From NCBI GenBank assembly GCA_007376135.1, contig VMFR01000002.1, positions 221,870-285,869 of the forward strand: DNA of 64,000 nt, written 5' to 3'. Both the position numbers and the translations under genes were made by a program. The DNA comes from Parcubacteria group bacterium Gr01-1014_31. Lineage in GTDB: Bacteria; Patescibacteriota; Patescibacteriia; Buchananbacterales; GWA2-38-13. The notes beneath the pieces are model-generated. The model was not told the origin of the DNA and searched no databases. It saw only the letters and a list, made by a program, of their open reading frames with translations. Each line of letters starts with the position of its first letter. Positions within the stretch are counted from its first letter, which is position 1. Below are positions 14,278 through 58,180 of this stretch, piece after piece.

Positions 14278-14282
14278 AGTGG

Positions 14283-15122: not shown

Positions 15123-15758
15123 TTATTGGCCTTGGATCCATTTTCCGATGTGATCCAGTGCCGCCGATGGGAACTGGTGGCCCAGGCCAGGGACAATGAT
15201 GATGTCTGGGGTGATGCGATAGTCGGCGAGGCGGCGGTTAGCATCGTCGATCTGCCGGAAATCGTCGCCTCGAGCCCAAGTATCGAGTTCGCCGACCACG
15301 GTGAGGATTTTCAGTTCCAGCGTTTGCGGCTGACTAAATATACCGAGCGGGTCGCAAAATGCGCCGAGGGGAATGGCGCCAGCAAAGAGGTCGGGATTTT
15401 GCATCGCGAATTCACAGGCGTTGTAACCACCGTTGGAAAATCCGGTGATAAAAATTTTGGCGGCAGGGTACTCATTTTTGAGCCGTTGGGCATCGATTGG
15501 TACGCTTTGTTCACTCCAGGTTTCTGGGACAATAATCCTAATGCCGAATTGTTTCTCCAGTGGCCGCCATGCGGTGCGCGTGCCTGCCGCTTCTCCCGGC
15601 TCGCCGCCGGTGGTCAGCACGAAAAGGATGGGTGCGTTCGGCGGCAGCGGATTTTTTCGGAGATTCGGAGGGCGCAGAGGTCCGCGCTGGATTGTCAGGG
15701 CGGCGACGACCGAGGCCGCAACGATAATAATGAAAAGCAGAGGAATGAAGCGGCGCAT
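15123..15758 (-). CDS. alpha/beta hydrolase (esterase/phospholipase-carboxylesterase family), N-terminal TM anchor
   Basis: GFSNGG (GxSxG nucleophile elbow); N-term hydrophobic segment. Confidence 0.75.
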   Translation of the reverse strand: MRRFIPLLFIIIVAASVVAALTIQRGPLRPPNLRKNPLPPNAPILFVLTTGGEPGEAAGTRTAWRPLEKQFGIRIIVPETWSEQSVPIDAQRLKNEYPAAKIFITGFSNGGYNACEFAMQNPDLFAGAIPLGAFCDPLGIFSQPQTLELKILTVVGELDTWARGDDFRQIDDANRRLADYRITPDIIIVPGLGHQFPSAALDHIGKWIQGQ

Positions 15759-15760
15759 AG

Positions 15761-16270
15761 TCAGAATTTCTCGGGTAGCGGGAGCTCGCGCGGCAGGTGA
15801 TTTGCGGCGGCGAAAAATCTTATCAGGTCGTCGTGCGGGAGCGCCAGAGTGGCGCGATTGTCATTGGGGTGGAATTGGTTGTAGGCATCGGCGGCCAGCG
15901 CGGCATCCAGAATGACCTGCACCACATTGTTTCGGTCATGCAGCACGCCGAACGGGCTGACCGATCCGGGGGTCAATCCCAGTAGCTCCCGCAGTTCGTC
16001 CGCTGTCGCGAATGACAGCCGTCCGCAGTTAAGAGTTTTTGCCAGCGCGCCGAGGTCCAGACGTTTGCGGCAGGGCGAAAGCAGTAAAAAGAATTTTTTT
16101 GCGGCGGTTTTCACCAATAGGCATTTGCTGGGAGTGCCGGGGATATCGCCGATGACCGTTTCGGCCTCGGCGCAGGTGTACACCGCGGGATGGTCGAAGC
16201 GTTGGTACCGCACGCCCAATTGATCCAACCGCGCGGTGACGGCCGCGGCGGCGTCAGGAACGTTGGGCAT
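15761..16270 (-). CDS. YbaK/ProX-type aminoacyl-tRNA deacylase domain protein
   Basis: KCLLVKT...LSPFGV motifs of YbaK family; start trimmed to MPNVPD (ORF track 15761..16585 runs into the upstream gene). Confidence 0.7.
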   Translation of the reverse strand: MPNVPDAAAAVTARLDQLGVRYQRFDHPAVYTCAEAETVIGDIPGTPSKCLLVKTAAKKFFLLLSPCRKRLDLGALAKTLNCGRLSFATADELRELLGLTPGSVSPFGVLHDRNNVVQVILDAALAADAYNQFHPNDNRATLALPHDDLIRFFAAANHLPRELPLPEKF

Positions 16271-24238: not shown

Positions 24239-24844
24239 CTACCGGGTAAAGGTGAAACTTTTTACCATTTCCTCAAAGATGGCCGCGTCCGCGGGGGCGC
24301 CGTCGGCGGAAGTAAAGATGAGGCGGTAGAGCTGGCTGCCTTTGGTGAACTGGTATTCAATGACCACGTAGCCGTTGCGCACGCCCGCATAGCGGTTCGC
24401 GGTTGAGCCGCCAACTGTGGTGCTGGTTTTTTCCAGGTCGACGGTGGCATCGGCGATGTCGGCGGGCGTTTTACCGGAGACTTCAATGACCAGCATCCCA
24501 AGGTACTCGCTGCCCAGCCCCGGCAAGGGATTGCGGTCGGCCATGAAGTAGTCGGTCACCGCCGGGTTGCTCGCAGCGATGTCGTTTTTCATCAGGTGTT
24601 GCCAGTACCATTTTTCCGGCCGGCGGATGCGGTACCCCATCGCGCCGTTCTCGTAATCGGCATAGGTGACGGGCGCGCCGCTGGCCGGGGAACTTGATGG
24701 CGTTGCGCTCACGGTCGGCGATGGCAGCGGTGTGGGTGCCGTGTTGATGTTGCCGTTCTCAATAACGGCGGGTTTCGGCGTACAGCCGGCGAGGAACAAC
24801 AGAGCAGTAATGATTATACCGAATCGAACGATGGGTGAATTCAT
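24239..24844 (-). CDS. hypothetical lipoprotein
   Basis: signal peptide with lipobox LAGC; Pro/Thr/Ser-rich linker. Confidence 0.6.
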   Translation of the reverse strand: MNSPIVRFGIIITALLFLAGCTPKPAVIENGNINTAPTPLPSPTVSATPSSSPASGAPVTYADYENGAMGYRIRRPEKWYWQHLMKNDIAASNPAVTDYFMADRNPLPGLGSEYLGMLVIEVSGKTPADIADATVDLEKTSTTVGGSTANRYAGVRNGYVVIEYQFTKGSQLYRLIFTSADGAPADAAIFEEMVKSFTFTR

Positions 24845-24851: not shown

Positions 24852-25478
24852 TTATTTTATCCAAAATCCAGAAACTTCAGCCAAGAATAATGTGGGTATG
24901 CTCATTAATGTTAGTAGCCAGAGAAAGAAAATGAATTTTAGTATTTTGTAATCTTTAAATTTTAATATTTGGGGTATTGATTCCTTATTGAGTATTGCCT
25001 GTTCAATTTCATCTCCTTCGATAAGCAATTGTTCTGCTCTGGCTGCATAGTCATAATATGATTTCCGGGTTGCAGCTATATGCCTAATTTTTGCGAGTAA
25101 AGTTTTTTGGTGATAATTTTTCAAAGTTTGAGATATGTCTCTGTATTTGATGAATGTCTCAATGGTGAATAGCAAGAAAGATAATGCGACTATGCGTGCC
25201 AATATTTGTATAAACCCTGAGGAGAATTCATCTTTCTTTGCGAATACAATTGTTAGCAGGACTCCGACGAAAGATATGATGGTAAGCTTTATTTTAAGTA
25301 AATAATCATCGAAACTTTTGGAATATTCCATTAAGGTTTTATAGATTTCTGTTTTTTCAATAAATTCTTGTTTTGTTATTTTCTGCCGTTCATCATCGCT
25401 AGCGGCTTCCATATAAATATTTGCTATACAATCAATCTTTTGGCCACCCCACCGGGTTCCCACATTGTCCCGCCTCAC
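24852..25478 (-). CDS. low-GC (about 30% GC) hypothetical 3-TM membrane protein, likely horizontally acquired
   Basis: strong compositional anomaly; Lys/Ile/Phe-rich; 2 TM + cytoplasmic coiled region + C-terminal TM; probable start at MEAASDD (about 25412). Confidence 0.55.
   Translation of the reverse strand: MRRDNVGTRWGGQKIDCIANIYMEAASDDERQKITKQEFIEKTEIYKTLMEYSKSFDDYLLKIKLTIISFVGVLLTIVFAKKDEFSSGFIQILARIVALSFLLFTIETFIKYRDISQTLKNYHQKTLLAKIRHIAATRKSYYDYAARAEQLLIEGDEIEQAILNKESIPQILKFKDYKILKFIFFLWLLTLMSIPTLFLAEVSGFWIK
25445..25466 (-). pseudogene. tRNA-Glu 3'-half fragment (decayed duplicate with 13-nt internal deletion)
   Basis: GCCCCACCGGG..TTCCCACATTG collinear with the intact tRNA at 25579-25650. 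Confidence 0.5.
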
Positions 25479-25561: not shown

Positions 25562-25668
25562 ATTCTGACAAATTTTTTTAGCCCCACCGGGAATCGAACC
25601 CGGGTTCCCACATTGAAAGCGTGGTGTCCTAGCCACTAGACGATGGGGCCAAAAAAATTTGTCAGAAT
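25562..25668. repeat. perfect 18-bp inverted repeat flanking the tRNA (ATTCTGACAAATTTTTTT ... AAAAAAATTTGTCAGAAT)
   Basis: seen directly; tRNA lies exactly in the loop. Confidence 0.8.
25579..25650 (-). tRNA. tRNA-Glu (anticodon UUC)
   Basis: cloverleaf reconstructed by hand: acceptor GGCCCCA/TGGGGCT, T-arm CCGGGTTCGATTCCCGG, anticodon loop CTTTCAA; discriminator A, CCA not encoded. Confidence 0.85.
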
Positions 25669-25911
25669 ATTAATTTGAGAAATGCCAGTTTGTGGAAGTT
25701 GAGGCCGCGGGCCGAAATCCCGCTATCTTGCGGGATGTGGTGTCTGCCCCGTCGGACCTGTTCCGTCGAATGGCGGGATGACGGGGTCCTAGCCACTACC
25801 CCGCCGCTGGCGGGGCAGGGACGATTCTGCCATAACACGCGTAGCGGGGAGTCCCGCTACCTGGCCTATGATACGGGAGAACGGGTGAATCGTCAATGCA
25901 ACGCTGCGCGC

Positions 25912-26661
25912 TCAATCCCGGCGCGTGAGAACGAAATTGCGGGTGCCAAACCACTGCGCCATGCGGTCGGTGTAGGTAACCCCGGCGCTATTGAGGGAAA
26001 GTTCGTAGGCGACCCACTGGCGCAGGTATTCGTCCTGTCGTTCTTTCGGCACAGCCTTGGACAACTCTTTCAGCGCGTAGAGATTGAAGAATTTTTCTTC
26101 CTGGATGGCGAGGCCGGCATCATTGAGCCAGGTTCGGAAATCGTTCTCGCGGACGAATGCTTGGTAGTCGGCTTCGTTGCCGCGCATCGCCCGCCAACGC
26201 CTGCGCCAGTCGCGGAAGCGTTCGCGCCACGGATAGTTGCCCTGCAGCCGTGCCAGGAAATGGCCGGCGTCGTAGTTGAGGTACATCACCGTGCCGGGCT
26301 GCAGCCAGCGGGCGCAGGTGCGCAGGTACCGCGGGCGCTGGTAGACGTGTTCCAGCACGCTGAACGAGACCACGACATCGAACCGTTCGTTAGCTGTAGG
26401 CGCGACATCGTAGACCGGCGTGGTGCGGATGTCGGCGTTGCAGCCCCTGAGAGCGGTTTTCGCGCGCGCGCAGGCGGCCGCATCGGGGTCCAGGCCGACG
26501 TAGCGCACTTGCGGGAACGCGCGCAGCAAAAGCGCGAAGTGGAGGCCGTCCCCGCAGCCCAGGTCCGCGATGCTCAGTCGCCCGCCGCGCTGGGTAATGA
26601 GCTGGGCGATACGGTCGAGGCAGTAGAGTTTTGCGGCGTTGCCGCCGGTCCAAATATCCAT
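25912..26661 (-). CDS. class I SAM-dependent methyltransferase
   Basis: motif I IADLGCGDG; Methyltransf_11/23-like post-I motifs. Confidence 0.8.
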   Translation of the reverse strand: MDIWTGGNAAKLYCLDRIAQLITQRGGRLSIADLGCGDGLHFALLLRAFPQVRYVGLDPDAAACARAKTALRGCNADIRTTPVYDVAPTANERFDVVVSFSVLEHVYQRPRYLRTCARWLQPGTVMYLNYDAGHFLARLQGNYPWRERFRDWRRRWRAMRGNEADYQAFVRENDFRTWLNDAGLAIQEEKFFNLYALKELSKAVPKERQDEYLRQWVAYELSLNSAGVTYTDRMAQWFGTRNFVLTRRD

Positions 26662-26735
26662 ATGGCCATTATAGGAGGAACCTGAGGCACAAACCAGCCG
26701 GCGCTTGGCGCGCCGGCTGGAAGTTTATGGGCTGG

Positions 26736-29747: not shown

Positions 29748-31603
29748 ATCTTTCTGTCATGGCCAGTCCGTATTATCTGGGTGGCGCCGCGGCGGGTCGG
29801 CCGCGCCGCATATGGCGGTGGTTTTTGGTTGCCTGCGTGCTTTCCGCCAGCGGCTTAATGGTCGGCGTGCTGGGCGCGTACCAGTGGCAGTACCGCGGGC
29901 GCGTGTATCCGGGGGTGTCGGTCGCCGGTCAGGTTGCCGGCGGATTGCCGCCCGCGGAGCTGACGGCGGCGTTGGCCGCGCGGCGCGATTCCCTTTTGAC
30001 GCACGGTTTGTGGCTTGACCTGGGCGGGGAGCTGGTGAATCTGCCGCTGGAGATCACTTCATCGGACCCGGACTTGGCGCGCGTGCCGGTGCAGTATGAC
30101 CTGGCCGATGCCGTTGCCCAAGCGTATGGCGTGGGCCGCGGCGGGACGCTGTGGTCGCAGTTGGTGGAACCTTTGCGCGTGCGGTGGTTCGGTCTTGACG
30201 TGCAGATGCGTTACGATCTTGACGAAGCCGTCGCGCAGGAACTGCTGCGGTCGGTGCTGAGCAGCCGGGAAACGCCGCCGCGTCCTGCGCGGTTGAGCGT
30301 TGAGGGCGGGGTGCTGCGCGTGTTGCCTGAACAAGATGGCGTACTGTTCGACTATGCCGCCGCGACGCGGGAGGTCAAAGACCACCTTGCCCGCATGGAT
30401 TCAGCGCCGATGCCAATGCGTCTGGTTGGCGCGCCCGCGCCGTTCAAGGTGGCACAGACAGCTGATGCTTTTGCGAAGGCCCAAGCCCTGACCCAGACCA
30501 CCACGCCGACCTTGGTGTACGGATCGCGGCGTTGGGAAGTCGGCCGCGGCCTGCTGCTGCAGTGGCTGCAATTCGAAGCAGGAAAGGACGGGCGCGTGCG
30601 TCTGGGTTTCAATGCCGCGGCCGTTGCCGAGTTCCTCGCGCCGGTTTCCGCGGTCATCAACGTTACGCCTCAGGATGCCAAATTCCGGCTGGAGAACGGA
30701 CGGGTTGTAGAGTTCCAGGTCAACCGTGACGGAAAGGAAGTGGATGTTCCTTCAACGACGGCGCGACTGGTGCAGGATTATTTGGAGGCGGGTTCCTCGG
30801 TGGTGCGGCTGGCCGTTGTGGTAGCACCGGCGAAATTCGCGACTGGCGACCTCAATGACCTGGGCATTCAGGAGCTGCTTGGTGTCGGGCGGTCGAATTT
30901 CGGGGGCAGTCCCAAGAACCGGCGCATCAACATCGCGCAGGGGGTCAAGTCGCTCAACGGCATTCTCATCGCGCCCGACGAGGAGTTCTCGCTGCTCAAG
31001 GCGCTCGGTCCGGTGGATGCGGAACACGGCTACCTGCCGGAACTGGTCATCAAGGGCGACCGCACCACGCCGGAGTTCGGGGGCGGGCTGTGCCAGATCG
31101 GTACGACGACCTTCCGGGCGGCGATCCGTTCAGGGCTCCCCATTACGCAGCGGCAGAGCCACAGTTTTCGCGTGCGGTACTACGACCCGCCGGGCATGGA
31201 CGCGACCATCTACGACCCGGCGCCGGATTTCCGTTTTAAAAACGACACTGGTCGCCACATCCTTTTTCTGGCGGAGATCGACGGCGACGAGCTGGTGTTC
31301 AGTTTCTACGGCACCAAGGATGGCCGCGTGGCCGAGGTGCCCGATAAAGCGGTGATTCTCAGTACGATACCTTCCGGTCCGGTACGCTACATTGAAACCG
31401 ACGATCTTAAGCCGGGAGAAAAAAAACTGGTCGAGAAGCCCGCTCCCGGCGGCACCGCCACCTTCCACTATAAAGTGACCTACCCCGACGGCCGCGTGAT
31501 GGAGCAGGATTTCAAAAGTACGTATCGTCCGTGGGCGGAAACCTGGCTGGTGGGTAGAACACCGACGGGTACGGAGGCCGTGCTGGGAGGCAGCACGCCC
31601 TGA
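29744..31603 (+). CDS. VanW family protein with N-terminal TM anchor
   Basis: GGGLCQIGTTTFRAAIRSGL...NDTGRHILF VanW-domain signature; possible alternative ATG start at 29759. Confidence 0.8.
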   Translation: MNLSVMASPYYLGGAAAGRPRRIWRWFLVACVLSASGLMVGVLGAYQWQYRGRVYPGVSVAGQVAGGLPPAELTAALAARRDSLLTHGLWLDLGGELVNLPLEITSSDPDLARVPVQYDLADAVAQAYGVGRGGTLWSQLVEPLRVRWFGLDVQMRYDLDEAVAQELLRSVLSSRETPPRPARLSVEGGVLRVLPEQDGVLFDYAAATREVKDHLARMDSAPMPMRLVGAPAPFKVAQTADAFAKAQALTQTTTPTLVYGSRRWEVGRGLLLQWLQFEAGKDGRVRLGFNAAAVAEFLAPVSAVINVTPQDAKFRLENGRVVEFQVNRDGKEVDVPSTTARLVQDYLEAGSSVVRLAVVVAPAKFATGDLNDLGIQELLGVGRSNFGGSPKNRRINIAQGVKSLNGILIAPDEEFSLLKALGPVDAEHGYLPELVIKGDRTTPEFGGGLCQIGTTTFRAAIRSGLPITQRQSHSFRVRYYDPPGMDATIYDPAPDFRFKNDTGRHILFLAEIDGDELVFSFYGTKDGRVAEVPDKAVILSTIPSGPVRYIETDDLKPGEKKLVEKPAPGGTATFHYKVTYPDGRVMEQDFKSTYRPWAETWLVGRTPTGTEAVLGGSTP

Positions 31604-31618
31604 TGAAATCGCGGCAAA

Positions 31619-31652
31619 CAAAAACGAGCAGCGAAAGCTGCTCGTTTTTTAA
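31619..31652 (+). terminator. rho-independent terminator (ACGAGCAGC-gaaa-GCTGCTCGT + T6)
   Basis: perfect 9-bp stem. Confidence 0.8.
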
Positions 31653-32104
31653 CGCTCGGACATCACGTTGTCGGACGGGCGGAATTTCACCAGCACACCA
31701 GGAATTTCAAGTACCTGCGCTCTCACTTGAGCTACCGTCGACAACCGTTTTTTACCGGGCAAACTCTGCAGACAAGGAAGTCACCCAAAGGCGCAGTCGA
31801 GCGGGCGCCAGACATGTCCTTACGGATGACTCCCCGCTTGTCGTGCCTGCAGAATACTGGACCGTGGGTGGAAAGGGGGTGGCTCCGACGAGGTCGGAGC
31901 GAACGTGAAAAGGACACGTTGCACACCTACGGCCCAAGATTCTACAGGCACCGCATTTCCTCCTAGGCACACAAGGCGCCCGAGGGTTGTCTACAGAGTT
32001 TGCGGGGTAAAAAAATATTTGCCTTTGGCAAAGGTCGAACGTAACTGTCAACAATAGCACAGGCGGAAAACCTTGTCAAGTAGGAGAGCTAAAAAATGCA
32101 AAAA

Positions 32105-32137
32105 AACCGCTCGGGTAAGCGATTTTTTTACGGTGAA
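32105..32137 (-). terminator. terminator for DUF167 gene (CGCTTACCCGAGCG + T7 on minus strand)
   Basis: seen directly. Confidence 0.5.
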
Positions 32138-32139
32138 GG

Positions 32140-32376
32140 CTAGGGCAGGTAGACGGAAACCAGTTTTTTCCTGCCGCGAAGGCCGCGAACGATTACCACC
32201 ATGCTCTTGGGGACGTCGAGAGTCTCGGCAACCAGCGCGATGACCGCCGTGTTGGCGGCGCCTTCCACCGGCTTTGCCGCGACGCGTATCTTCCAATTGG
32301 TGCCGTCGCGCGCGACCACCTCCGAACGTTTGGCGTTGGGCGTCACCGTGACGGACAGTCGGAGAGTGTCAGGCAT
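32140..32376 (-). CDS. DUF167/YggU (UPF0235) family protein
   Basis: LRLSVTVTPNAKRSEV...KPVEGAANTAVIALVAETLDVPKSMVVIVRG..SR.K.V matches YggU; start trimmed to MPDTLRL. Confidence 0.7.
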   Translation of the reverse strand: MPDTLRLSVTVTPNAKRSEVVARDGTNWKIRVAAKPVEGAANTAVIALVAETLDVPKSMVVIVRGLRGRKKLVSVYLP

Positions 32377-32458
32377 CGGTTGACAGTGTAGCGGTAATGC
32401 GCTACGCAGGCAATGTCCTTTTGAAACCCCGCCGCCCCTTCTTTCGTCGAGGTGTTCC

Positions 32459-32767
32459 GTGAAAGAACAGTTGCTTTTCTTCGTCACGCCGTTGAATGAC
32501 GTGACCCGCTTGGGTCGGCAGCAGCCGTATGTGGCCGTCGGGATCGTCTTTGATGACCAAGCGCGTCGGCTGACCATGCTCACCGGTCACGGTACCCGTC
32601 AGGGCTTGCGGTCCCAGACTGCGGGCACGCTCATGGAACTCCTTGATTTCCTGTCCGCCGAGCTGCAGCAGGCCCACGGATTTCCGATGCCCCCGGAAGT
32701 GCGGGAAAATTTTTTCGCCACCTTCCGCGACTTCACCCGCGGTCTCGTCCCCGACGCGCCGTCCTAG
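32459..32767 (+). CDS. hypothetical protein (GTG start)
   Basis: protein-like composition vs G-rich antisense ORF; SD GAGGTG; followed by hairpin CCCCC..GGGGG + T-rich tail at about 32797-32828. Confidence 0.45.
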   Translation: MKEQLLFFVTPLNDVTRLGRQQPYVAVGIVFDDQARRLTMLTGHGTRQGLRSQTAGTLMELLDFLSAELQQAHGFPMPPEVRENFFATFRDFTRGLVPDAPS

Positions 32768-32832
32768 CCCTCCCTTCTTTCCGTCCCCTCGTTCACCGCC
32801 CCCGCCATCACGGTTGGGGGCTTGTTTTAGGG

Positions 32833-32861
32833 TTGACATTTTTCAATATATTTGGTATATA
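32833..32861 (+). promoter_or_regulatory. consensus sigma70 promoter TTGACA-17-TATATA (second TTGACA at about 32893)
   Basis: read directly; 90 nt upstream of the 577-aa gene. Confidence 0.65.
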
Positions 32862-32953
32862 CAATTGCTGCGATTCCGCGTTCTCGGACCGCAGTGCCCT
32901 TTGACAATCAATGGTTGGTTGTCGCAAAAGTCAAAACATAAGGAGTACATGAA

Positions 32954-34687
32954 TTGGGAAAACATGAATACGAACCTGCAGTCGACGTGAAGCGTTTGCT
33001 CAGCGGCGTCGACGACCGCAGACGGGAAAAGTTGTGCAATCGGCTCTTCCGGTATGTTCAGGACAGTCGGAGCACGGCTGACCTCGAGGGTTGCGCGGTA
33101 GGCGTCGTTGAACCCTTTGAGCGGGCGTACTGGAACGATTTTTCACGTTCGGTCTTGGAAAACACTTCCCACATCATTGCACAAAATGGGGGGAAAGTAA
33201 TTGAACTTTCTCCTCCGCCATTGTCGCGGCCAGAAGCAGTTGAGACTGAGCGACGGTTGCGGGAGCGAATTTTCGGAATGGCGAAGCCGATTCTCCACCG
33301 AATTTATGATGACCTGTATGCGCGTAAGCGTTTAGAGGTTTTCCTCCGTTCCACCTACCTCGACATGGAGTCGCCCAGTTTCGAAGCCAAAGCATTGCTC
33401 GGAAACTCCGAGCGAATGCTGACCTATCTCAGGGGAGGGTTTCCAGCGGAAGAAATTCGGAAAGCCGCCCGGCATACGTTTATCCTGGAGTTCTACCGCT
33501 ACACCGGGCTCACGCTGGAGCGATCGTTGGGGCTTGCTCTCTTTTTGCTCGGACAATTCGAGATGCTTTCTCGTCAGCTCGTCGGCGTGAATTCTCCCCC
33601 GGATGCCCACTCCCGTGCTTCCATTCCCTGGCGGATTCTTCTCGGGAGTCTGGGGAGTCCGGCAGATCAGCGCGCTCCCCAGCGAGAGTGGTTCTCTCGG
33701 CTTCTCCATTCGGTGGAAGGGAATCCTGTGGTTGAGGAAGTTATCGACTCGATCTACAACCTCGCAACGTGTTCTCCTGACGGAGAAACGGTGGTGACCC
33801 ACAGTCAACCAGAGATGACACAACAACACTCGGCCGAGCAACTTGAGAAGCTGGTTGACGCGGAGTACCACGACAGCGAAGTTCTGCAGTGCAACACCCC
33901 AATTTTCCTCACCTCCGAAGAAGAGGCGATTTTTGCCCGTCTACGGCAATCCGGCCGGGCAGAATTCGAGCGGAATTTCGAGCAGGGTCGTGCCGCCCTG
34001 AGTTGGTTCTCCGCGCACGATGAGTTTCGGGGGGAACTTGAGTGGAAGCGGCGGGAGATCGTCGAGCGGCAGCATGGAAGCCGCCCCGGCATCCGGTTTC
34101 TCCGGGATAACGGTGTTGACCATTTCGAGGTCGATGTGCAGCCGTTGTGGCACATCGGGGTGCGATCCGTCGCCTTTCATCCGGAGGGGCGCGTGTTTCA
34201 CGATCCAGCGTTGCGGATCGCAATACGCAAAGAAACCCCTCACCTCATCGTCTTCCCGGCTTGCTTGGAGAATCTCCGTTTGGAGTTGGTCGATGTTCAT
34301 ATGCTGTATAACCTACAGTACGATGATTTGGACCAGCTGCGGCGTTTCCTGGAGTTTGTGATCATCAACATGATGCACCGCATCATGGTCCAGAGAGTGG
34401 AACTCCGATCCCGAGTCGTCAACGGTGTAGTGGTGCCACGCCCCACGGAGGTACGGAGGTTCGAAGTTGCGAGCCATACCCGAGGCCTACCGTCCGGTTC
34501 TCAGGCGAGTGAAGAAGCCAAGGCGTTGGCGTTCACGGAGAAGGGTATCATCCTCAATTCGGGGGAGACGTACGTTTCCGCTTACCCCAAGGGGGGTAAA
34601 GATGGGTCCGAGTTGGTCTACGACTGGCCGATCGAGCCGTGGGCGGTCTACACTGAGGATGATCTCTACGAAGATGGAGGTGGCTAA
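32954..34687 (+). CDS. hypothetical protein (577 aa), no recognisable domain; first gene of candidate system
   Basis: TTG start 8 nt after SD AAGGAG; mixed composition throughout; acidic C-terminus. Confidence 0.6.
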   Translation: MGKHEYEPAVDVKRLLSGVDDRRREKLCNRLFRYVQDSRSTADLEGCAVGVVEPFERAYWNDFSRSVLENTSHIIAQNGGKVIELSPPPLSRPEAVETERRLRERIFGMAKPILHRIYDDLYARKRLEVFLRSTYLDMESPSFEAKALLGNSERMLTYLRGGFPAEEIRKAARHTFILEFYRYTGLTLERSLGLALFLLGQFEMLSRQLVGVNSPPDAHSRASIPWRILLGSLGSPADQRAPQREWFSRLLHSVEGNPVVEEVIDSIYNLATCSPDGETVVTHSQPEMTQQHSAEQLEKLVDAEYHDSEVLQCNTPIFLTSEEEAIFARLRQSGRAEFERNFEQGRAALSWFSAHDEFRGELEWKRREIVERQHGSRPGIRFLRDNGVDHFEVDVQPLWHIGVRSVAFHPEGRVFHDPALRIAIRKETPHLIVFPACLENLRLELVDVHMLYNLQYDDLDQLRRFLEFVIINMMHRIMVQRVELRSRVVNGVVVPRPTEVRRFEVASHTRGLPSGSQASEEAKALAFTEKGIILNSGETYVSAYPKGGKDGSELVYDWPIEPWAVYTEDDLYEDGGG

Positions 34688-35067
34688 TGGAATTTGACCA
34701 CTTCGATCTTCGCGAGCTCTACCGGGAGTGGCGTGAACAACGGCCAACATTGACGAGCCGGCTGCAAAGGAGTTTTCCTGCATGGGTTTTCGAGGTGCGT
34801 TCTCAGTACCGCGAGCTCGCCCGCGCGCATCCGTCGCTTTTCCACGCCGCCTGCCATCAAGCCGAGGAAGCGGAAAGAGGCGTCGCTACACCCCCTGACC
34901 ACGGTATCCGTCAGGCTGTCCTGCAACGCCACGCTGTTGAGCTTGCACAGTGTTGGCTGCTGGCGCGCGATCAATACCCCACGTTTGGTGCATTTCTCGA
35001 GCGGGTGCTCCAGGAATGCCAAACCGAGCGCGCGCTGCAGCGATGGCTCAAGCACCTTCCGAGGTAA
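34687..35067 (+). CDS. hypothetical protein (126 aa), translationally coupled (TAATG) to upstream gene
   Basis: ORF track; start overlaps stop. Confidence 0.55.
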   Translation: MEFDHFDLRELYREWREQRPTLTSRLQRSFPAWVFEVRSQYRELARAHPSLFHAACHQAEEAERGVATPPDHGIRQAVLQRHAVELAQCWLLARDQYPTFGAFLERVLQECQTERALQRWLKHLPR

Positions 35068-35098
35068 GTCGGTCCAGAGATTGGGCCGACTTTTTTTA
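35067..35098 (+). terminator. stem-loop AGTCGG..CCGACT + T7
   Basis: seen directly after stop of 126-aa gene. Confidence 0.6.
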
Positions 35099-35185: not shown

Positions 35186-38100
35186 GTGAGAAAGATGAGC
35201 AAGAAAGAGAAAATCGCCCTCATTATGAGCATCGCCGATGTGGCGTTGCGAAACCAGTCGCTGCGGTGGATGCTCAAAGCCGGTGAAATCACCGAGGATG
35301 ATCTCGCGGTAGTTGATGCCCAAGAAGCGGCACGCCAGTACCCCGAGCTCCGGGAACGTTTTAAGACCGATCCCGGCCTGCGGGTACTGCTGGACGTTTT
35401 CCGCGACTACCCGATCTACTTGGCCCGTGCGTTGGTTCAGGCGGCGCCGGACGTGTTCTACTCGTACGGTTTTGCGTACCGAAACTCAGTCAAGTTGCGC
35501 GCCGACCTCGGCACAATCGGAGTTGACCCGATCCGTGGCTCCGGCGGTTCGGGAGCTGCGGTGTACCTTGAGCGTCTTCCCAAGGAAGTTCGACAAGACT
35601 TGGTCGCACTGCTCCAGGAATTCTACTTTCATGAGTGGCTCAAGGATTTCTCCGACAGCCCCGAAGATGCGCTGGCCCTGCTCGATTTGGCTCGCGGGGA
35701 AGCCACTAATGATTTGGCGCGCCAGGCGTTGTCCGGACTTCATGATGAGTGTCAGCAGGTGTTCCAGGGAGTTTTCCCCGACTTTGTCGAGGAATTCCAT
35801 GCATCCCGGTTTCCATCTTTCCACGTTCGTTGGTGGATCCACCATATCAGCGAGGTTCCCCGCGTACTCAATATGGGAGATACCGGGACCCAAAAGACCG
35901 CCTTTGCCGCGGTCGGGCTTCGTCACTATGGCTGCCAACGGGCGCTGATCGTCTGTCCGACCCGCGCGAGTCTCCAATGGCAACGCGAGATCCAGGGCTA
36001 TCTGCGAACGCCCGCCGACCGCGTGCTGTTGGTTGATAGTCCGCGGATGATCGCGGAAGCGGCCGTCGCCACGCCGTGGTACACCATCATCGGGTACAGT
36101 ACGCTGATCGCGCGCGGGGTGGTAGACCAACTGAAGGCCATCCCCTTTGATGGGTTGGTTTTGGATGAGTGCCACTACTGCAATCACGATTCGCATCGGG
36201 CGATAGCTGCCAGTCAGCTCGTCAACGAGCTTCCGCTCCGGCGATTTTTAGCGCTGTCCGCTACTCCCTGGGAGAACCATCCGCGAGAGATGGCAGCGCT
36301 CGCTACCATGCTGCGGCCGACCACGTTCGCTTCGCCAGAGGTCTTTCGTCAGTCGCGGCCGGAGCACCCTCGTTTTCTTCGTGAACTTTTCCGCGCGCAA
36401 GTGCTTCAAGTGGAGCTGCGCGAGCTGACTCGTCTCCCATCGATCACCCCGAGCCCTTGGGAGGATCTGTTCGGCGCCGAACTGATTGAACCGACGCCGG
36501 AGCAGCGCGCTGTGTACGATTTTGTACGCGAGCAAGAGGACGACGAGCTCCCCGCGACCGAAAAGATGAAACGGCTGCTGTGGGCGGCGATCCATCCGCA
36601 CAAGCTGAAGCCCCTTTACGCGTGGCCAGCTGCGCTGGTATCGCACTTCGATCATCCGGAGCTTTCGGCAAAGCTCGCCTGGTTGAAAAACCGAATCACC
36701 CTTGAGCTTGCTCGAGGCGCCAAGGTGGTCGTCGGCACTGGCATTTACGTCGCCGGCATTACCTGTCCCAACGACAACGGTGACGAGCAGTGGGTCGGCA
36801 ATCAATTGCGTCAGTGGTTTGGCGAGCATCGCGTGCTCATCCTCGACGGGAGTGTGCTGAAGAGTGCCGGCCATAGCGGTTTAGTCAAGCGCGAACGACT
36901 CATCGAACAATGGCGCAACGATCCGGAAACCAGGATTCTCCTCGTTTCGATACCGGCCTGTCCCGATGCGCTGAACCTCAGCGTTCCCAAGTTGTCTGGG
37001 ATTACCCGTCTTTTCGTCACCACCCTGTCTTATCCCTGGAAGCCGTGGAAGCAATTCCAAGGTCGTTTCTGGAGGCCAGGGCTCGGCGTGGAGATGGAGT
37101 ACCGGGTGCCGGTGCTTCGCGGGACAATCGACCACAGTCTACTACGGATGCTCCGCAGGAAGTGGGAGTTGCAGCAGATGTTCCGTGCCTTGGTACCGTT
37201 GACTGAAGAGGAATTCGCTCGACTTGATCAGGGCGAGTATCTCCGCTGGTTGGCGGATGAGCTGCGTTCCGACTACCAACGCGTTATCTTCATCGGTAAC
37301 AATTTCCGTGGTCAGGGAGAAGCTCATGCGATTGCCATGTTCGAGGCTGAGTATGCGTCGACTACAACCGCAGAGGCATATGCAAGCGCATTTCTTGCCT
37401 GCCATGACTGCGCCACTTCTGGGCATATCGCTCGGTTCATGCAACCAGCGATCGAGGCGATGCAACAGCAAGGAGGGCTTGTGGATTCCACCGGTGTCAC
37501 CATACTCGATGCTGGGTGTGGCCCACTCACCCTCGAGCGGCGTTTGGCGCAGCCAGTCTATGGTGTGGACATGAATCGCCATATGATTGAACTGGCCAAG
37601 CCAAAGTCGCCGTGTGGCGGCTGCAATGTCCACGTCGGTTTCCTCAGCCAGCTGCCAGCAGAATGGACCGGGCGATTCGAGTTGACGGTTGCCTCGCTCG
37701 TGCTCGACTGGACTTCGATCGAGAGCGAAGTCGGGAGAGAACCGGATCGTTTGACGGTGCTGCGGGAGTTAGTTCGCGTTACACATCCAGTCGCTGGCCA
37801 CGTCTGGATAACCGTGACGCATCGGTCGCTCACCTCGGAGCTGTTTCAAGGCTGGGTTGCCGCCCTGGAACAGCAGGGTTTCGAGATCGTACGTGATTTT
37901 ACGGCGTTGTTCCGATCAAAGGACCACGAACCTGGTCAGGTACCATTCGAATTCTGGTCGATCTGTTTTTCACCCAAGGGTAAACAGCTTACCTTGGTCG
38001 ATCCTCAAGCACTTCGTTTCACTTTCGAACAATCGCGCACGAAGAAGAAGCGATCTGCCGATGGAGACGACGATCAGCTGCGAAGCCCAAAAGTGCAACG

Positions 38101-38332
38101 CATGGTCAAGTACCAGAAATTCGAGGCCGTACATCGGTCAGGCGAAATCGTCCAGCAGTCGGATGCGATCGAGCGGGCCGTCTCGGGTGAGGTGGTTCGT
38201 TTGATGCGCAACCCTGATTTGCGGGGGTGGAAACCTCACCGCAAGCCAATCCTTGCCTGGGAACATCTGTGGCGCTCTTATGTGAAGCGTCCGGAGGTTG
38301 CCGAAGAACTCAGGCGGCGCGGGTTCCTGTGA
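35186..38332 (+). CDS. fusion protein: N-terminal unknown domain (about 230 aa) + SNF2-family helicase (SNF2_N + Helicase_C) + class I SAM methyltransferase (Methyltransf_11-like) + basic C-terminal tail
   Basis: motif I GDTGTQKT, Ia ALIVCPTRASLQW, II LVLDECHY (DExH), III LALSATPWEN, V RILLVSIPACPDALNL, VI QFQGRFWRPGLG; MTase motif I ILDAGCGPLT, post-I VYGVDMN, Methyltransf_11 tail; GTG start with SD GGAGG. Confidence 0.8.
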   Translation: MRKMSKKEKIALIMSIADVALRNQSLRWMLKAGEITEDDLAVVDAQEAARQYPELRERFKTDPGLRVLLDVFRDYPIYLARALVQAAPDVFYSYGFAYRNSVKLRADLGTIGVDPIRGSGGSGAAVYLERLPKEVRQDLVALLQEFYFHEWLKDFSDSPEDALALLDLARGEATNDLARQALSGLHDECQQVFQGVFPDFVEEFHASRFPSFHVRWWIHHISEVPRVLNMGDTGTQKTAFAAVGLRHYGCQRALIVCPTRASLQWQREIQGYLRTPADRVLLVDSPRMIAEAAVATPWYTIIGYSTLIARGVVDQLKAIPFDGLVLDECHYCNHDSHRAIAASQLVNELPLRRFLALSATPWENHPREMAALATMLRPTTFASPEVFRQSRPEHPRFLRELFRAQVLQVELRELTRLPSITPSPWEDLFGAELIEPTPEQRAVYDFVREQEDDELPATEKMKRLLWAAIHPHKLKPLYAWPAALVSHFDHPELSAKLAWLKNRITLELARGAKVVVGTGIYVAGITCPNDNGDEQWVGNQLRQWFGEHRVLILDGSVLKSAGHSGLVKRERLIEQWRNDPETRILLVSIPACPDALNLSVPKLSGITRLFVTTLSYPWKPWKQFQGRFWRPGLGVEMEYRVPVLRGTIDHSLLRMLRRKWELQQMFRALVPLTEEEFARLDQGEYLRWLADELRSDYQRVIFIGNNFRGQGEAHAIAMFEAEYASTTTAEAYASAFLACHDCATSGHIARFMQPAIEAMQQQGGLVDSTGVTILDAGCGPLTLERRLAQPVYGVDMNRHMIELAKPKSPCGGCNVHVGFLSQLPAEWTGRFELTVASLVLDWTSIESEVGREPDRLTVLRELVRVTHPVAGHVWITVTHRSLTSELFQGWVAALEQQGFEIVRDFTALFRSKDHEPGQVPFEFWSICFSPKGKQLTLVDPQALRFTFEQSRTKKKRSADGDDDQLRSPKVQRMVKYQKFEAVHRSGEIVQQSDAIERAVSGEVVRLMRNPDLRGWKPHRKPILAWEHLWRSYVKRPEVAEELRRRGFL

Positions 38333-38408: not shown

Positions 38409-39002
38409 ATGGATGAACCGTTTTGGAGGCAGCAACCCCAGACCGTGGCACAGGCCATGCTGGGTAAGCTGCTCGTGGTCGGCGAGACGGAAGGCTGGGT
38501 GCTGCGCACCGAAGGATACCCTCGGGCGAAGAATGCCGCCGGCATTTACAAGCCGATGCTGGAAATGGCGCCTGGAGATGTCTACTGTCCGCGGACCCGG
38601 AATTCGATCCTCCTGCTGATCGTAACGCAGGATGGGGTCGACATCGGTGGCTGCGTCCTCATACGCGCTGCCGAGATTGGTGGTACGACGTTTGACGGTC
38701 CGGGCAAGGTCACCGAGGCTTTCGGGGTCACCGTGCCGCGGGTTTCCGGTACTGCTGAAATCGGGGAGGACGACGATACGGTGCTCGTCCACCTCGGGAC
38801 ATCTCGCGCTAAGGACCAGCCGAAGCCGTCGCGGCCGCGCTTGCGTGCCTATGCGGCCATCGGATGGGAAACCGTCAGGCGCAACATGCCTCGCATCGCA
38901 AAATGCTTCTTGAGTCAGCCCTTCGGTCGGTTCGAGGATTTTCTCGAACGGATTCTCGAGGGCTGTACCAGTGAGGTGGAACTGTTGAAGCGTCTCCGTT
39001 GA
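38409..39002 (+). CDS. mpg: 3-methyladenine DNA glycosylase (Mpg/AAG family)
   Basis: AQAMLGKLLVV..ETEGW..RTEGY..AAGIYKP..MAPGDVYCP..NSILLLIV..GGCVLIRAAE matches AAG-family core; SD GGAGG. Confidence 0.75.
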   Translation: MDEPFWRQQPQTVAQAMLGKLLVVGETEGWVLRTEGYPRAKNAAGIYKPMLEMAPGDVYCPRTRNSILLLIVTQDGVDIGGCVLIRAAEIGGTTFDGPGKVTEAFGVTVPRVSGTAEIGEDDDTVLVHLGTSRAKDQPKPSRPRLRAYAAIGWETVRRNMPRIAKCFLSQPFGRFEDFLERILEGCTSEVELLKRLR

Positions 39003-39078: not shown

Positions 39079-39122
39079 TCCATGGTACTATTCGCGCGAA
39101 TAGTACCATGGACTTTTTTATT
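39079..39122 (+). terminator. perfect 34-bp palindrome (TCCATGGTACTATTCGCG|CGCGAATAGTACCATGGA) + T6 between convergent genes
   Basis: seen directly. Confidence 0.75.
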
Positions 39123-39624
39123 CCCCCAGCCGTTCCACCAGTTTGAGTGCGGCTTTGCCGGTCGTCAAATCGACGAGCGCGAAGGTCGCTTTGTACCACA
39201 TGCCAGCCAGGGTGCCAGGATTGAGCACGGTGCAGCTGCTGATTTTTTCTTCCCACGGCTTGTGGGTGTGGCCGTGAAAGACATAGCGGTACTTGCCCGT
39301 TGCGGCCAGTTCCTTGGCTTCCTGCGGATAGTGGACGAACGCCAGCTGCACGCCGCCGATGACGGTTTCCCCAACATCGCCGTGCAGGGTGACATGCGGG
39401 AATTGCCGGCCCATGGCGGCAAAGCCGTCGCGGTCCACGTCGCAGTTGCCGTAAACGGCGTGGATTTGTTTGGGAAATCCGTGCGCCAGCAGCGCCAAGG
39501 TTTCAGGCGTGGTAATGTCGCCGCAGTGGATGAGCGCGTCAATGGGCAGCGCGGAAAAATAACGCAAGGCCAACTGCAAATTGGCCTCGTTGTCGTGGGT
39601 GTCGGAAATAATTGCAATTATCAT
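39118..39624 (-). CDS. metallophosphoesterase (YfcE/MJ0936 family)
   Basis: ISDTHDN, GD, GNCD, GHTH motifs. Confidence 0.85.
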   Translation of the reverse strand: MIIAIISDTHDNEANLQLALRYFSALPIDALIHCGDITTPETLALLAHGFPKQIHAVYGNCDVDRDGFAAMGRQFPHVTLHGDVGETVIGGVQLAFVHYPQEAKELAATGKYRYVFHGHTHKPWEEKISSCTVLNPGTLAGMWYKATFALVDLTTGKAALKLVERLGE

Positions 39625-39683: not shown

Positions 39684-40538
39684 CTAAGAAAGGTACCGCC
39701 AAAGTCGCGCCCCGTGTCCAAATTTAGAGCATTGAGCCGTTCCTCGTCGGCTAATTTCGCTAACTCGGCCGTTGAGTGCGGGATGCGCAACGAGCGCTGC
39801 GAAGCCGGCCTTTCCGATCTTCCCCTCCCCCAGGTGCGCGTGGCGGTCCACATGCGCCCCGAAGTCGGCCTGCGAGTCATTAGCGTGGATGAGCACGAGC
39901 CGGTCCAGACCGATGGTGCGGTCAAATTTTTTCAAAGTTGCGCTCACTGCCCCAGCAGTCCGCAGGTCGTAGCCCGCCGTGAATGCGTGGCAGGTATCCA
40001 GGCAGACGCCGATCTTCCCGCGCCAGGCTGCGTTCATCTTTTCGACGTCCTTGATGTAGGCGGCAATTTCTTCAAAGGAATCACCCAAGACTGCGCCCGA
40101 ACCGGCGGCGAGCTCAATTAAAAAACGGGTCGTACCCGTATACCCGTCCAGCATTTTTATCAGCCCTTTCACCACCATCTGATGGGCAGCGGCGGCATCC
40201 ACGTCCTTGGCGCTGCCCAGATGGGTCATCAGCGCGGCGGCTCCAAGCTTTGACGCGCGTTCCAATTCTTCGCGGATGATCGCGATGGTGCCGTGGCGGA
40301 TGCGAATGTTCGCCGACGCGAAGTTGACGTAGTAGGGAGTGTGCACGTAGCAGGCCGCCTGCGCATACTTTCGCATTGCCGCGTGGAATTGCGAGAGTAT
40401 TTCGGGTGTCAGCTCCGGCGCTTTGCCGCCGCGCGGCGAACGGATGAACATTTGAAACACTTCGCAGCCGACCGCGGCCGCGTTGGCCGGTGCATTGAAC
40501 ACCCCGCCAGCGATGGAAACGTGGAGACCGAAACGCAT
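39684..40538 (-). CDS. nfo: endonuclease IV (AP endonuclease family 2)
   Basis: TIM-barrel xylose-isomerase-like motifs; start trimmed to MRFGLHVSIAGG (ORF track upstream extension is translation of the TTGAC repeat array). Confidence 0.85.
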   Translation of the reverse strand: MRFGLHVSIAGGVFNAPANAAAVGCEVFQMFIRSPRGGKAPELTPEILSQFHAAMRKYAQAACYVHTPYYVNFASANIRIRHGTIAIIREELERASKLGAAALMTHLGSAKDVDAAAAHQMVVKGLIKMLDGYTGTTRFLIELAAGSGAVLGDSFEEIAAYIKDVEKMNAAWRGKIGVCLDTCHAFTAGYDLRTAGAVSATLKKFDRTIGLDRLVLIHANDSQADFGAHVDRHAHLGEGKIGKAGFAALVAHPALNGRVSEISRRGTAQCSKFGHGARLWRYLS

Positions 40539-40549
40539 AGATGAGACAA

Positions 40550-40612
40550 TTGACTTTTGACCATTGACCGTTGACTTTTTCCGACGGTCAAATGTCAATG
40601 GTCAACGGTTAA
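40550..40612. promoter_or_regulatory. palindromic heptad array: 4x TTGAC(nn) ... centre ... 4x (nn)GTCAA/GTTAA, immediately upstream of nfo
   Basis: TTGACttTTGACcaTTGACcgTTGACtttttccgacgGTCAAatGTCAAtgGTCAAcgGTTAA. Confidence 0.6.
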
Positions 40613-45378: not shown

Positions 45379-46665
45379 CTACAAGCTGGTGATGGTGATT
45401 TTGAGGTACTCCATGACCTTGCGCGACACCAGGACGTTTTCGACGTAGGAGCGAAATTCCGGGCTCTTGGTTCGTTCGCGGATTTCCGGGTTGCCCTCGT
45501 AGGCGGAAAATTCGCGGGCCACGGCCGCATCCACCTCGGCGTCGGAGGCCGTTACCTGCTGCTGTTTGGCAATGAGGCGCGAGATGAGCGCGCCTTTGAC
45601 ACGCTTGATGGCCTGCGGCGTGAGATCCAGGAGAAGCTGCGCGCGGTCCTTTTTGATGCTGGCCAGATACTCGTCAAAGCCGATGCCTTGGTTGCCGACG
45701 TTGTGTTCAAGCTCCGCAGCCATGGTCTTGGTTTCGGTCGTGACCAGCAGGTCGGGGATGTCGGAGAATTTGCTCTTGGCGATGAGTTCGTCCATGACGG
45801 CGCCTTCCAGCCGGTCGTCTTCGCGCTTGGCGGCTTCCTGCAGGAGGCTGGCGCGCAGTTTTTCCTTCAGGTCGGAAAGCGATGCAAATTTACCCAGGCT
45901 TTTGGCGAACTCGTCGGTCAGTTCGGGCGGCGTCAGTTCGTAAACCCCCAGCACTTTGACGCGGAATTCCACGGTTTTGCCGGCGACCGCGCGGTTGTGG
46001 TAGTCGTCGGGCAGCTTGAGTGGGAAGGCTTTTTCCTGATTGGCGGCGAGCCCGATGACCTGCTCTTCAAATCCCGGCAAAAAGCGGTTTTCGCCCAGGA
46101 CCAGCGGCAGCCGTTCGGATTGGCCATGCTCCACCGGTACGCTTTCGTGGAAGGTATCCAATCGAATCTCCACCTTGTCCTTGGCGCGCGCGGGGCGCGT
46201 GACTAGCACTTCCGTGCGGCGCATCGTCCGCAGGTCTTCCAGGGTCTTTGTCACATCGGCATCCGCGACCGTTGGCGCACGGCGCTCCACCTTGATGCGC
46301 GAAAGGTCGCTCAACTGCACCTCGGGCAGTAGGTTGACGGTGGCGCGGTAGACGACCGGGTTGCCGGGCGCGAGCTTGGTGATTCCGATCTGCGGCGAGC
46401 CGACGGATTCCAATTTGGCTTGCGCGAGCGCTTGCGGGTAGGTGCGTTTGACCGCCGCTTCTAAGGCCTCTTCCCACAGCTTGGCCTCGCCGATCTTTTC
46501 TACCATCACTTCATATGGAGCTTTGCCCGCCCGGAACCCGGGGATGGTTAGGTGCGCGGAAACAACGGCTGCGGCGCGATGGAGGAACGGTGCGTACTCG
46601 TCCGCGGTGAGCGTGACGGTCAGCTCCGCCTGCCCGCGCGGCAGTTTTTTTGCAGCGACGTCCAT
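45379..46665 (-). CDS. tig: trigger factor
   Basis: IPGFRAGKAPYEV motif, PPIase and C-terminal domains, 428 aa. Confidence 0.9.
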   Translation of the reverse strand: MDVAAKKLPRGQAELTVTLTADEYAPFLHRAAAVVSAHLTIPGFRAGKAPYEVMVEKIGEAKLWEEALEAAVKRTYPQALAQAKLESVGSPQIGITKLAPGNPVVYRATVNLLPEVQLSDLSRIKVERRAPTVADADVTKTLEDLRTMRRTEVLVTRPARAKDKVEIRLDTFHESVPVEHGQSERLPLVLGENRFLPGFEEQVIGLAANQEKAFPLKLPDDYHNRAVAGKTVEFRVKVLGVYELTPPELTDEFAKSLGKFASLSDLKEKLRASLLQEAAKREDDRLEGAVMDELIAKSKFSDIPDLLVTTETKTMAAELEHNVGNQGIGFDEYLASIKKDRAQLLLDLTPQAIKRVKGALISRLIAKQQQVTASDAEVDAAVAREFSAYEGNPEIRERTKSPEFRSYVENVLVSRKVMEYLKITITSL

Positions 46666-58171: not shown

Positions 58172-58180
58172 TAGCCGCGT

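Follow-up and report, generated by a model that had tools for sequence, protein, structure and literature searches.

What would an SNF2-type motor do with a methyltransferase (MTase) that does not resemble the enzymes known to modify DNA? This question is raised by gene C, an open reading frame (ORF) located at 35186..38332 (+) in a stretch of 64,000 nucleotides (nt), referred to below as the window, of contig VMFR01000002.1 (positions 221,870 to 285,869 of the forward strand). The DNA comes from Parcubacteria group bacterium Gr01-1014_31, a metagenome-assembled genome (MAG). The gene encodes a protein of 1048 amino acids (aa), which an earlier note, made from the DNA letters alone, had read as an SNF2 helicase fused to an MTase of the Methyltransf_11 type. 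Here we show that C joins in one chain a complete SNF2-type ATPase and a class I MTase with intact S-adenosylmethionine (SAM)-binding motifs, the two being connected by a helical bridge that is conserved, and that it forms a two-gene module with the gene that follows it, D. In fact, this partner gene, which resembles alkyladenine DNA glycosylase (AAG; in bacteria, methylpurine DNA glycosylase, MPG) and was overlooked in the earlier note, is the most informative feature of the locus.

Gene C encodes a constrained protein of six parts

Gene C begins with a GTG codon, which is preceded by a GGAGG Shine-Dalgarno sequence at a spacing of 6 nt. The public annotation instead uses an ATG start three codons downstream and thus lists a product of 1045 aa, named 'hypothetical protein G01um101431_767', in the Parcubacteria group MAG. 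A search for homologues with the same fusion, as proposed in the earlier note, retrieved 31 full-length relatives of 1013-1066 aa, which align with C from end to end at 39-50% identity. Residues G231, T233 and K237 of Walker A, D327-E328, A359-T360-P361, Q623, F624, R627 and R630 are invariant among the 31 sequences, and so are D775, G777, G779, D795 and N797 in the MTase domain. Given these full-length relatives and the invariance of the catalytic motifs, gene C is a real, constrained gene and not a chance ORF.

All of the motifs quoted in the earlier note are found in the C translation, namely GDTGTQKT, DECH, SATPWEN, QFQGRFWRPG, ILDAGCGPLT, VYGVDMN, LVLDW and KKKRSADGDDDQLRSPK. The two domains read from them are also recovered by Pfam, which places SNF2-rel_dom at residues 246-391 (E = 1.4e-12) and Methyltransf_11 at residues 774-868. 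An AlphaFold model of C, built on the family alignment, has a predicted local distance difference test score (pLDDT) of 84.5 and a predicted template modelling score (pTM) of 0.76, and contains two RecA lobes and a seven-stranded Rossmann MTase. Six parts can be distinguished along the chain: a helical N-terminal domain, a two-lobe SNF2 ATPase, a helical bridge, a class I MTase, a basic disordered linker and a folded C-terminal domain (Table 1). The N-terminal domain is marked by an invariant YLARAL motif together with invariant P88, G95 and G109; a profile search of the PDB for its relatives gave only a spurious match to a designed repeat.

The motor part has the Walker A, DExH and motif III sequences of an SNF2/SWI2 protein. 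By sequence, lobe 1 is best matched by phrog_62 'DNA helicase' in PHROGs (E = 1.3e-26), a match that covers residues 218-516 only, and a helical insertion at 438-510 separates the two lobes in the model. The second lobe is recognized by structure and not by sequence profile, as Pfam Helicase_C gives no match in C. When the model was compared with known structures using Foldseek, about 520 motor columns aligned with CSB/Rad26, ISW1, Mot1, RapA and ZorD, with E values of 1e-15 to 1e-13. Since these alignments cover both lobes of known SNF2 motors, the second RecA lobe of C is, judging from the model, present despite the missed profile. SNF2 proteins are translocases on double-stranded DNA (dsDNA) and not strand-separating helicases; of the earlier name 'SNF2 helicase', therefore, the family assignment stands and the word helicase does not.

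The C-terminus had been described as a Lys/Arg-rich tail of about 100 aa. The last 104 residues are indeed basic (K+R 23%, isoelectric point 10.4), but they do not form a uniform tail: the linker is followed by a folded domain, in which F979, A994, R1005 and W1029-R1030 are conserved. The domain architecture had been called unusual in the earlier note; the fusion is not unique to this family. P0033, a distant protein of 1540 aa with the domain order helix-turn-helix (HTH) repeats, SNF2, Helicase_C and Methyltransf_11, is collinear with C, residues 209-913 of C aligning with residues 722-1398 of P0033 (E = 8e-24). Its lobe 2, unlike that of C, is a canonical Helicase_C domain, its N-terminal part is a long HTH region, and it lies in a different genomic context with no D-like neighbour. 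Given this collinearity, which runs from lobe 1 through the bridge into the MTase of so distant a protein, the combination of SNF2 motor, bridge and class I MTase is, by sequence comparison, older and wider than the C family.

The MTase is of class I and unlike DNA amino- or C5-MTases

Seven strands of the MTase fold are found at residues 773-929 of the model. Together with the GxGxG motif I, the acidic end of beta2 and the invariance of D775, G777, G779 and D795, they place the domain among class I MTases. The Pfam match to Methyltransf_11 (PF08241) has a score of 27.5 bits versus a cut-off of 21.2, and the scores of Methyltransf_25 and Methyltransf_31 are slightly under their cut-offs. A profile search of the MTase region against the PDB, suggested in the earlier note as a check, returned generic class I enzymes only, including 3sm3 (E = 4.6e-7), ToxA, 3l8d and a glucose O-MTase; the closest solved relatives act on small molecules or have no assigned function. 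In NCBIfam, CpaM (in 13 of 13 members), BioC and ChlM were matched below threshold. As the named NCBIfam MTase families are all far under their cut-offs for C (at best 24.9 bits versus 342), no acceptor can be assigned from the profiles.

The earlier note had further claimed that this is not an amino-MTase of the DNA type, and the claim has withstood a search for a DPPY-type motif that might have been missed by eye. The motif (D/N/S)PP(Y/F/W) is absent from the MTase region in 31 of 31 family members; in C, beta4 is followed by SLVLDW. No PCQ or ENV motif is conserved in this region of the 31 sequences, and neither Pfam nor NCBIfam gives a match to DNA-MTase families, including N6_Mtase, N6_N4_Mtase, MethyltransfD12 and DNA_methylase. 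With the motif absent and no profile matched, we reject the identification of C as a DNA amino-MTase or C5-MTase. Outside the SAM site, residues W827, F831, W874, W890 and F923-W924-S925 are invariant among the 31 sequences, which suggests that the MTase domain has a conserved acceptor site.

The partner gene D has a shortened AAG fold

Gene D (38409..39002 (+)) encodes a protein of 197 aa and starts 76 nt downstream of C. It matches the Pfam family MPG (PF02245) with an E value of 6.8e-9 and a score of 35.8 bits versus a cut-off of 27, and 11 of the 14 D members match this family. The structure model of D has a pLDDT of 84 and a pTM of 0.82. Its top PDB match in Foldseek is human AAG (3qi5; E = 8e-6, probability 1.0), followed by the C-domains of ArnA and Met-tRNA formyltransferase. 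A search of PDB sequences with the D-family profile found nothing, and the link of D to AAG therefore rests on Pfam and the comparison of folds.

By fold and sequence family, then, D belongs with the MPG proteins; by catalytic residues it does not. D retains the GCVLIRA.E strand and the PG.xY segment of AAG/MPG, whereas its catalytic domain is about 50 residues shorter and it carries an extra helical module at the C-terminus. For the catalytic residues, 13 D members were scored in an alignment with the true MPGs P0050 and P0051. We use the numbering of human AAG, in which we take E125 to be the catalytic Glu and H136, Y159 and Y162 to be pocket or wedge residues. A 7-residue deletion in D takes out the AAH segment that contains His136, and the YVYxIYG segment has turned into YCPRxRN, so that Pro and Arg replace the equivalents of Tyr159 and Tyr162 in most members. 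The column equivalent to Glu125 is occupied by Glu in 4 of the 13 members, by Gln in 5, and by Arg, Ser, Val or Thr in the others. An acidic residue is missing both from this column and from the position two residues upstream in 5 of the 13, while the D of the window itself retains the Glu. Because the His136 segment is deleted, the Tyr residues are replaced and the Glu is not conserved, D, an AAG-fold protein, is probably not a canonical hydrolase.

C and D are inherited together

Loci containing C were gathered from genome, metagenome and assembly collections. In each of the 17 unique loci with both a full-length C and downstream DNA, D is the gene directly 3' of C and shares its strand. In addition, the pairwise identities among the C proteins correlate with those among the D proteins (r = 0.73; Mantel permutation p about 2e-4). 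C and D are thus a two-gene module that is inherited together. Only two variants of C, which are independent, lack the MTase domain, namely L013 7944..11449 (the same as L022) and L023 74..3142, and both also lack D. These SNF2 variants stop after lobe 2 (at 707 aa in L013); the gene after them encodes a DUF4379 treble-clef Zn-ribbon protein with an N-terminal copy of the helical module described in the next section. In the window, terminator-like hairpins after gene B, which precedes C, and after D suggest that A-B and C-D are separate transcription units.

A helical module recurs among the neighbours of C

The tail module of D, about 48 aa long, forms helices at residues 153-196 of the model and is homologous to the C-terminus of B. 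A hidden Markov model (HMM) of the module matches B-like proteins of about 125 aa in at least eight loci, including the window, L004, L005, L008, L012, L014 and L016. In L009 it matches the N-terminus of a 606-aa protein located after D (7426..9246; E = 5e-16), in which Pfam finds the HTH repeats HTH_29 and HTH_17. On the other side of C-D in this locus, a 435-aa protein (2020..3327) located upstream of C also begins with the module. HTH repeats are present in P0033 as well, where they are N-terminal and fused to the SNF2-MTase. Weaker matches, with E values of 1e-3 to 1.4e-2, were obtained at the N-termini of 4 of 4 complete DUF4379 proteins adjoining C; by eye, these N-termini read TLAKYxxxLLAxY...TFxxFxxWV...ExxLRNWL, in agreement with the module consensus. 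In a shuffle control, one match with E <0.02 was seen over 10 shuffles of 406 sequences, versus 5 weak real matches, all of which are neighbours of C. The module is carried by all recurrent neighbour classes but A, including the neighbours of the MTase-less variants. We infer that it may be an adaptor that addresses the N-terminal or SNF2 part of C.

Gene A adjoins C in the window, L001, L004, L005 (in two copies) and L008, and distant A-like genes are present in L007 and L011. Homologues of A and B are found upstream of C in L001 and L004 and are differently arranged in L005 and L008; the B homologue of L001 lies at 9458-9835. The A family comprises 77 cluster representatives, nearly all of which are 440-640 aa long or fragments. 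No recognizable domain was found in A, either with the window copy in Pfam, NCBIfam, PADLOC and PHROGs, with 31 members in Pfam, or in a profile search of the PDB. Some loci without A have a recurrent protein of 580-650 aa directly upstream of C (L010 3609..5552, L014 484..2280 and L020 3459..5201). Pfam gives no match for this protein, and an IS110-like identity, guessed from a GIG...KGQxxQRxRGEP segment, was dropped for want of Pfam support.

Distribution and genomic context

Scans with conserved peptide patterns, which may miss divergent copies, found only 11 loci when applied to representative genomes covering 185,579 species, and 8 loci in a metagenome collection. The named hosts are Parcubacteria, Sungbacteria, Uhrbacteria, Andersenbacteria and 'Patescibacteria', indicating a patchy occurrence within the candidate phyla radiation (CPR)/Patescibacteria. 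Several third-party annotation MAGs are labelled Gammaproteobacteria or Saccharibacteria, and those of L005, L010, L011, L012 and L014 are titled 'uncultured Gammaproteobacteria bacterium'. Since L012 shares CPR-like synteny with the window, the Gammaproteobacteria labels are probably artefacts of binning or naming. The patchy, horizontally spread distribution suggests an accessory role in conflict or epigenetic marking (marking of self or of invaders) and not a housekeeping one. No relatives of C were found in the viral contigs of IMG/VR. In phage or plasmid records there are no whole-protein relatives, the matches being limited to the SNF2 part, and BFVD returned SNF2 helicases only; a viral or plasmid origin of C was rejected on these grounds.

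The genes flanking C-D are mostly housekeeping ones that vary by locus, such as UvrA and L19 (UvrA in L001), an ATP synthase operon and sugar-nucleotide genes. SAM synthetase adjoins C in 2 loci. In L016 (4913..15909, Candidatus Sungbacteria), SAM synthetase precedes C-D, and a B-like gene, Cas12a (Cpf1), Cas1, Cas2 and a phage-type integrase come after it; a HATPase_c_3 protein lies near C-D in another locus. In the window, a metallophosphoesterase is located just downstream of D. Downstream of D, endonuclease IV (Nfo, AP_endonuc_2) is found at 0.7 kb in the window and at about 3 kb in L012. In the latter, the most divergent locus, Nfo, trigger factor (Tig) and YggU are all within 5 kb of the module (13691..16081), and these three genes flank it in the window as well. 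Their proximity reflects either a gene order inherited from a common ancestor or a weak tie to base-excision repair.

Comparison with known systems

SNF2-MTase couplings are known from DISARM-like defence and from phage or plasmid anti-restriction proteins, in which the MTase is a standard DNA amino- or C5-enzyme. Among known systems, C-D would come nearest to these in its way of working. In the literature that we searched, no description was found of the C family or of an SNF2-MTase/AAG-like pairing. Similar to C-D, DISARM is an accessory module in which an SNF2 ATPase (DrmD) is genetically coupled to an MTase (DrmMI/DrmMII). However, the DISARM MTase is a separate N6-adenine or C5-cytosine DNA enzyme, and DrmA, DrmB (DUF1998) and usually a phospholipase D-type (PLD) nuclease are required, whereas in C the MTase domain is part of the motor protein itself and belongs to the Methyltransf_11 type. 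On C, DrmD models match the N-lobe weakly (22.9 bits versus a cut-off of 610), and no DrmA/B/C-like neighbours are present in any C locus examined. The phage and plasmid methylase-helicase fusions of the phrog_62 type, such as BFVD A0A8S5MVF3 'DNA methylase', also combine an SNF2 motor and an MTase in one polypeptide. Their MTase domains are of the DPPY amino type, and in BFVD their structural alignments with C are long but poor.

In Foldseek, RapA/HepA and CSB/Rad26 rank among the structures closest to the motor core, but they have other N-terminal domains and no MTase, and the RapA model reaches only 14.5 bits on C versus a cut-off of 576. DpdE, the SNF2-like helicase of the Dpd cluster for 7-deazaguanine modification and restriction of DNA, and hence of a DNA-modification context, provides the best PADLOC matches (E = 8e-9 to 4e-6). 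These matches cover lobe 1 of C only (residues ~230-390), and no dpdA/B/C or other dpd genes were found near C in the loci examined. With matches that are sub-threshold and confined to lobe 1, and with no partner genes, membership of C in DISARM, Dpd, Zorya or RapA was rejected.

Proposed function and alternatives

The intact motifs of both enzymes, the strict linkage of C and D, their co-variation, the joint loss of the MTase domain and D, and the shared module lead us to a proposal that we hold with somewhat less than even confidence: C-D may be a module for DNA modification, driven by ATP and recruited by adaptors, with a part in conflict or epigenetic marking, and D would bind or flip the purine to be methylated at a non-canonical position. 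C would be the hub, with a motor that translocates on dsDNA as SNF2 ATPases do. The module-bearing adaptors would bind particular DNA features and dock on the N-terminal or SNF2 part of C. D would serve as a base-flipping AAG scaffold without hydrolysis, selecting or reading a purine for the tethered MTase, and the latter would methylate the purine elsewhere than at the exocyclic amino groups, which are the targets of DPPY-type enzymes. In the subset of loci that have it, A may be an effector or a regulator. The SAM synthetase beside C in two loci is counted as support, as it could supply SAM. The proposal can be made more specific, with C as a writer of ring-nitrogen (N1, N3 or N7) methylation on DNA purines, D as its dedicated AAG-fold reader or base presenter, and interchangeable adaptors with the 48-aa module steering the writer; in this form we consider it a long shot.

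A number of points weigh against a DNA-modification module. The usual acceptors of class I MTases of this type are small molecules, proteins or RNA. AAG buries the flipped base in its own pocket, and the passing of a base to a separate MTase site is sterically unproven. The core C-D pair contains no nuclease or other obvious effector, and the mostly housekeeping flanks form no clear defence island around it. The fold of D is shared with the tRNA-binding C-domain of formyltransferase, also matched by Foldseek, and D could by this likeness bind RNA. Finally, the 48-aa module could be a plain DNA-binding helical motif instead of a docking element.

In one alternative, the acceptor is not DNA. C would then be a transcription or nucleoid remodeller similar to RapA or CSB, whose MTase acts on nascent RNA or on a protein, be it RNA polymerase or one that binds DNA, and D would bind RNA through its likeness to the formyltransferase C-domain. 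The best structural matches of the motor do include CSB/Rad26 on Pol II, Mot1 and RapA, the MTase resembles the non-DNA class I enzymes CpaM, BioC, ChlM and ToxA, and D matches the ArnA and formyltransferase C-domains. However, SNF2 cores all look alike to Foldseek and the sequence score of the RapA model is far below its cut-off, D belongs by sequence to MPG and not to the formyltransferase C-domain, and the distribution is much too sparse for a core transcription factor, which together make this reading unlikely, though not far-fetched. If the acceptor is DNA, a restriction system that methylates and then excises can also be imagined: C would add lesion-type methyl groups (for example, 3-methyladenine or 7-methylguanine) to foreign DNA, an active D would excise the bases, and an apurinic/apyrimidinic endonuclease would cut. 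Such a system fits with the MPG/AAG family and fold of D, with the Glu at the catalytic column of the window's own D, with endonuclease IV downstream of D in the window and L012, and with the joint gain or loss of D and the MTase domain. We nevertheless regard it as decidedly improbable, as the Glu is kept in only 4 of the 13 members, 5 of them have no acid there or two residues upstream, and the equivalents of His136 and of Tyr159/Tyr162 are missing. Moreover, Nfo is linked in 2 loci only, both of which also share Tig and YggU, pointing to ordinary shared synteny, and self DNA would have to be spared, for which no means is evident.

Two further alternatives give up either the methyl transfer or the marking of DNA. 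The MTase-like domain might be a SAM sensor that gates the translocase, for which the SAM dependence of type I and III restriction enzymes is a precedent; its likeness to known families is limited to the SAM-binding half, and no substrate-binding motif is recognizable. We think this very unlikely, since the invariant W827, F831, W874, W890 and F923-W924-S925 argue that a second binding surface or an active site has been conserved, and the strict co-loss of the MTase domain and D suggests a shared chemical task. Alternatively, the module could be a repair accessory for the surveillance of alkylation damage: D would detect alkylated purines, leave them in place and call in the SNF2 motor, which would clear the lesions or signal their presence. 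The AAG fold with degenerate catalysis in D and the CSB-like motor in C would suit such a role, and so would the mostly housekeeping neighbours, including UvrA in L001 and Nfo in the window. It would, however, leave the obligatory MTase unexplained, only a few CPR genomes carry the module, and a set of Zn-ribbon and HTH-repeat adaptors is more typical of variable conflict systems; we accordingly give it very little credence.

Coordinates and other features of the window

The positions of the parts of C and D, of the neighbouring genes and of the hairpins are collected in Table 1.

Table 1. Features of the C-D locus and its flanks, with positions in the window
Feature	Position	Strand	Description and basis
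Gene A	32954..34687	+	577 aa; conserved C-terminal block VRPHxRRLPxGxxASxEA...TFVRAHYR
Gene B	34687..35067	+	126 aa; start overlaps the A stop by 1 nt; module at C-terminus
Terminator-like hairpin	35066..35092	+	Between B and C; 12-bp stem and T run; consensus scan only
C residues 1-200 (model 1-195)	35186..35785	+	All-helical N-terminal domain; secondary structure of model, alignments
C residues ~205-410 (model about 215-410)	35798..36415	+	SNF2 lobe 1; GDTGTQKT Walker A, DECH, SATPWEN; Pfam SNF2-rel_dom, E 1.4e-12
C residues ~512-645	36719..37120	+	SNF2 lobe 2, divergent; motif VI-like QFxGRFxRxGQ; structure model and Foldseek
C residues ~648-765	37127..37480	+	Helical bridge from motor to MTase; also kept in P0033
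C residues ~766-932	37481..37981	+	Class I SAM MTase of Methyltransf_11/25/31 type; ILDAGCGP motif I, D795 ends beta2
C residues 945-978	38018..38119	+	Lys/Arg-rich disordered linker; pLDDT <50 at 954-970; K+R 29%
C residues 979-1048 (fold 979-1044)	38120..38332	+	Small basic folded domain, two short strands and three helices, then stop
D residues 1-130	38409..38798	+	Shortened AAG/MPG-fold domain; Pfam PF02245, model, Foldseek
D residues 152-197	38862..38999	+	Helical tail module of ~48 aa; HMM and shuffle control
Terminator-like hairpin	39079..39112	+	After D, end of C-D unit; 15-bp stem and T run; consensus scan only
Metallophosphoesterase, endonuclease IV, trigger factor, YggU/DUF167-like ORF	39118..39624, 39684..40598, 45379..46665, 32140..32583	-	Flanks of the module

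The stretch of about 1.3 kb upstream of A (31603..32954) contains no convincing long ORF save the DUF167-like one on the (-) strand, and Rfam finds nothing in it. The window has a single RNA gene, a tRNA-Glu (UUC) at 25578..25651 (-). Beside it, the segment 24001..26000 has a GC content of 49%, versus about 60% elsewhere, and holds three ORFs without a Pfam family (24239..24844, 24852..25478 and 25675..26685); this low-GC stretch may be a small acquired islet. Further downstream, an AT skew of -0.22 to -0.36 is seen at 56000..62000, over the large (+) ORFs 55799..58171, 58181..60250 and 60334..61683.

Implications

The novelty of C lies in a non-DNA-type MTase placed on an SNF2 motor and genetically locked to a catalytically degenerate alkylpurine-glycosylase fold. 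To our knowledge, the MTase type found in C is not known to act on DNA. Should DNA nevertheless be the acceptor, bacterial epigenetics and immunity would gain a new base modification and a new logic of writer and reader, and the module would represent a compact ATP-driven base-modifying machine with possible use as a tool. Methylation at a ring nitrogen of purines, if true, would be a new chemistry of DNA marking or immunity, limited to date to CPR bacteria. If the acceptor is a protein or RNA, C would be a rare bacterial remodeller with its own modifying enzyme. Either way, a testable gene module and a shared adaptor motif have been defined in the poorly understood CPR bacteria.

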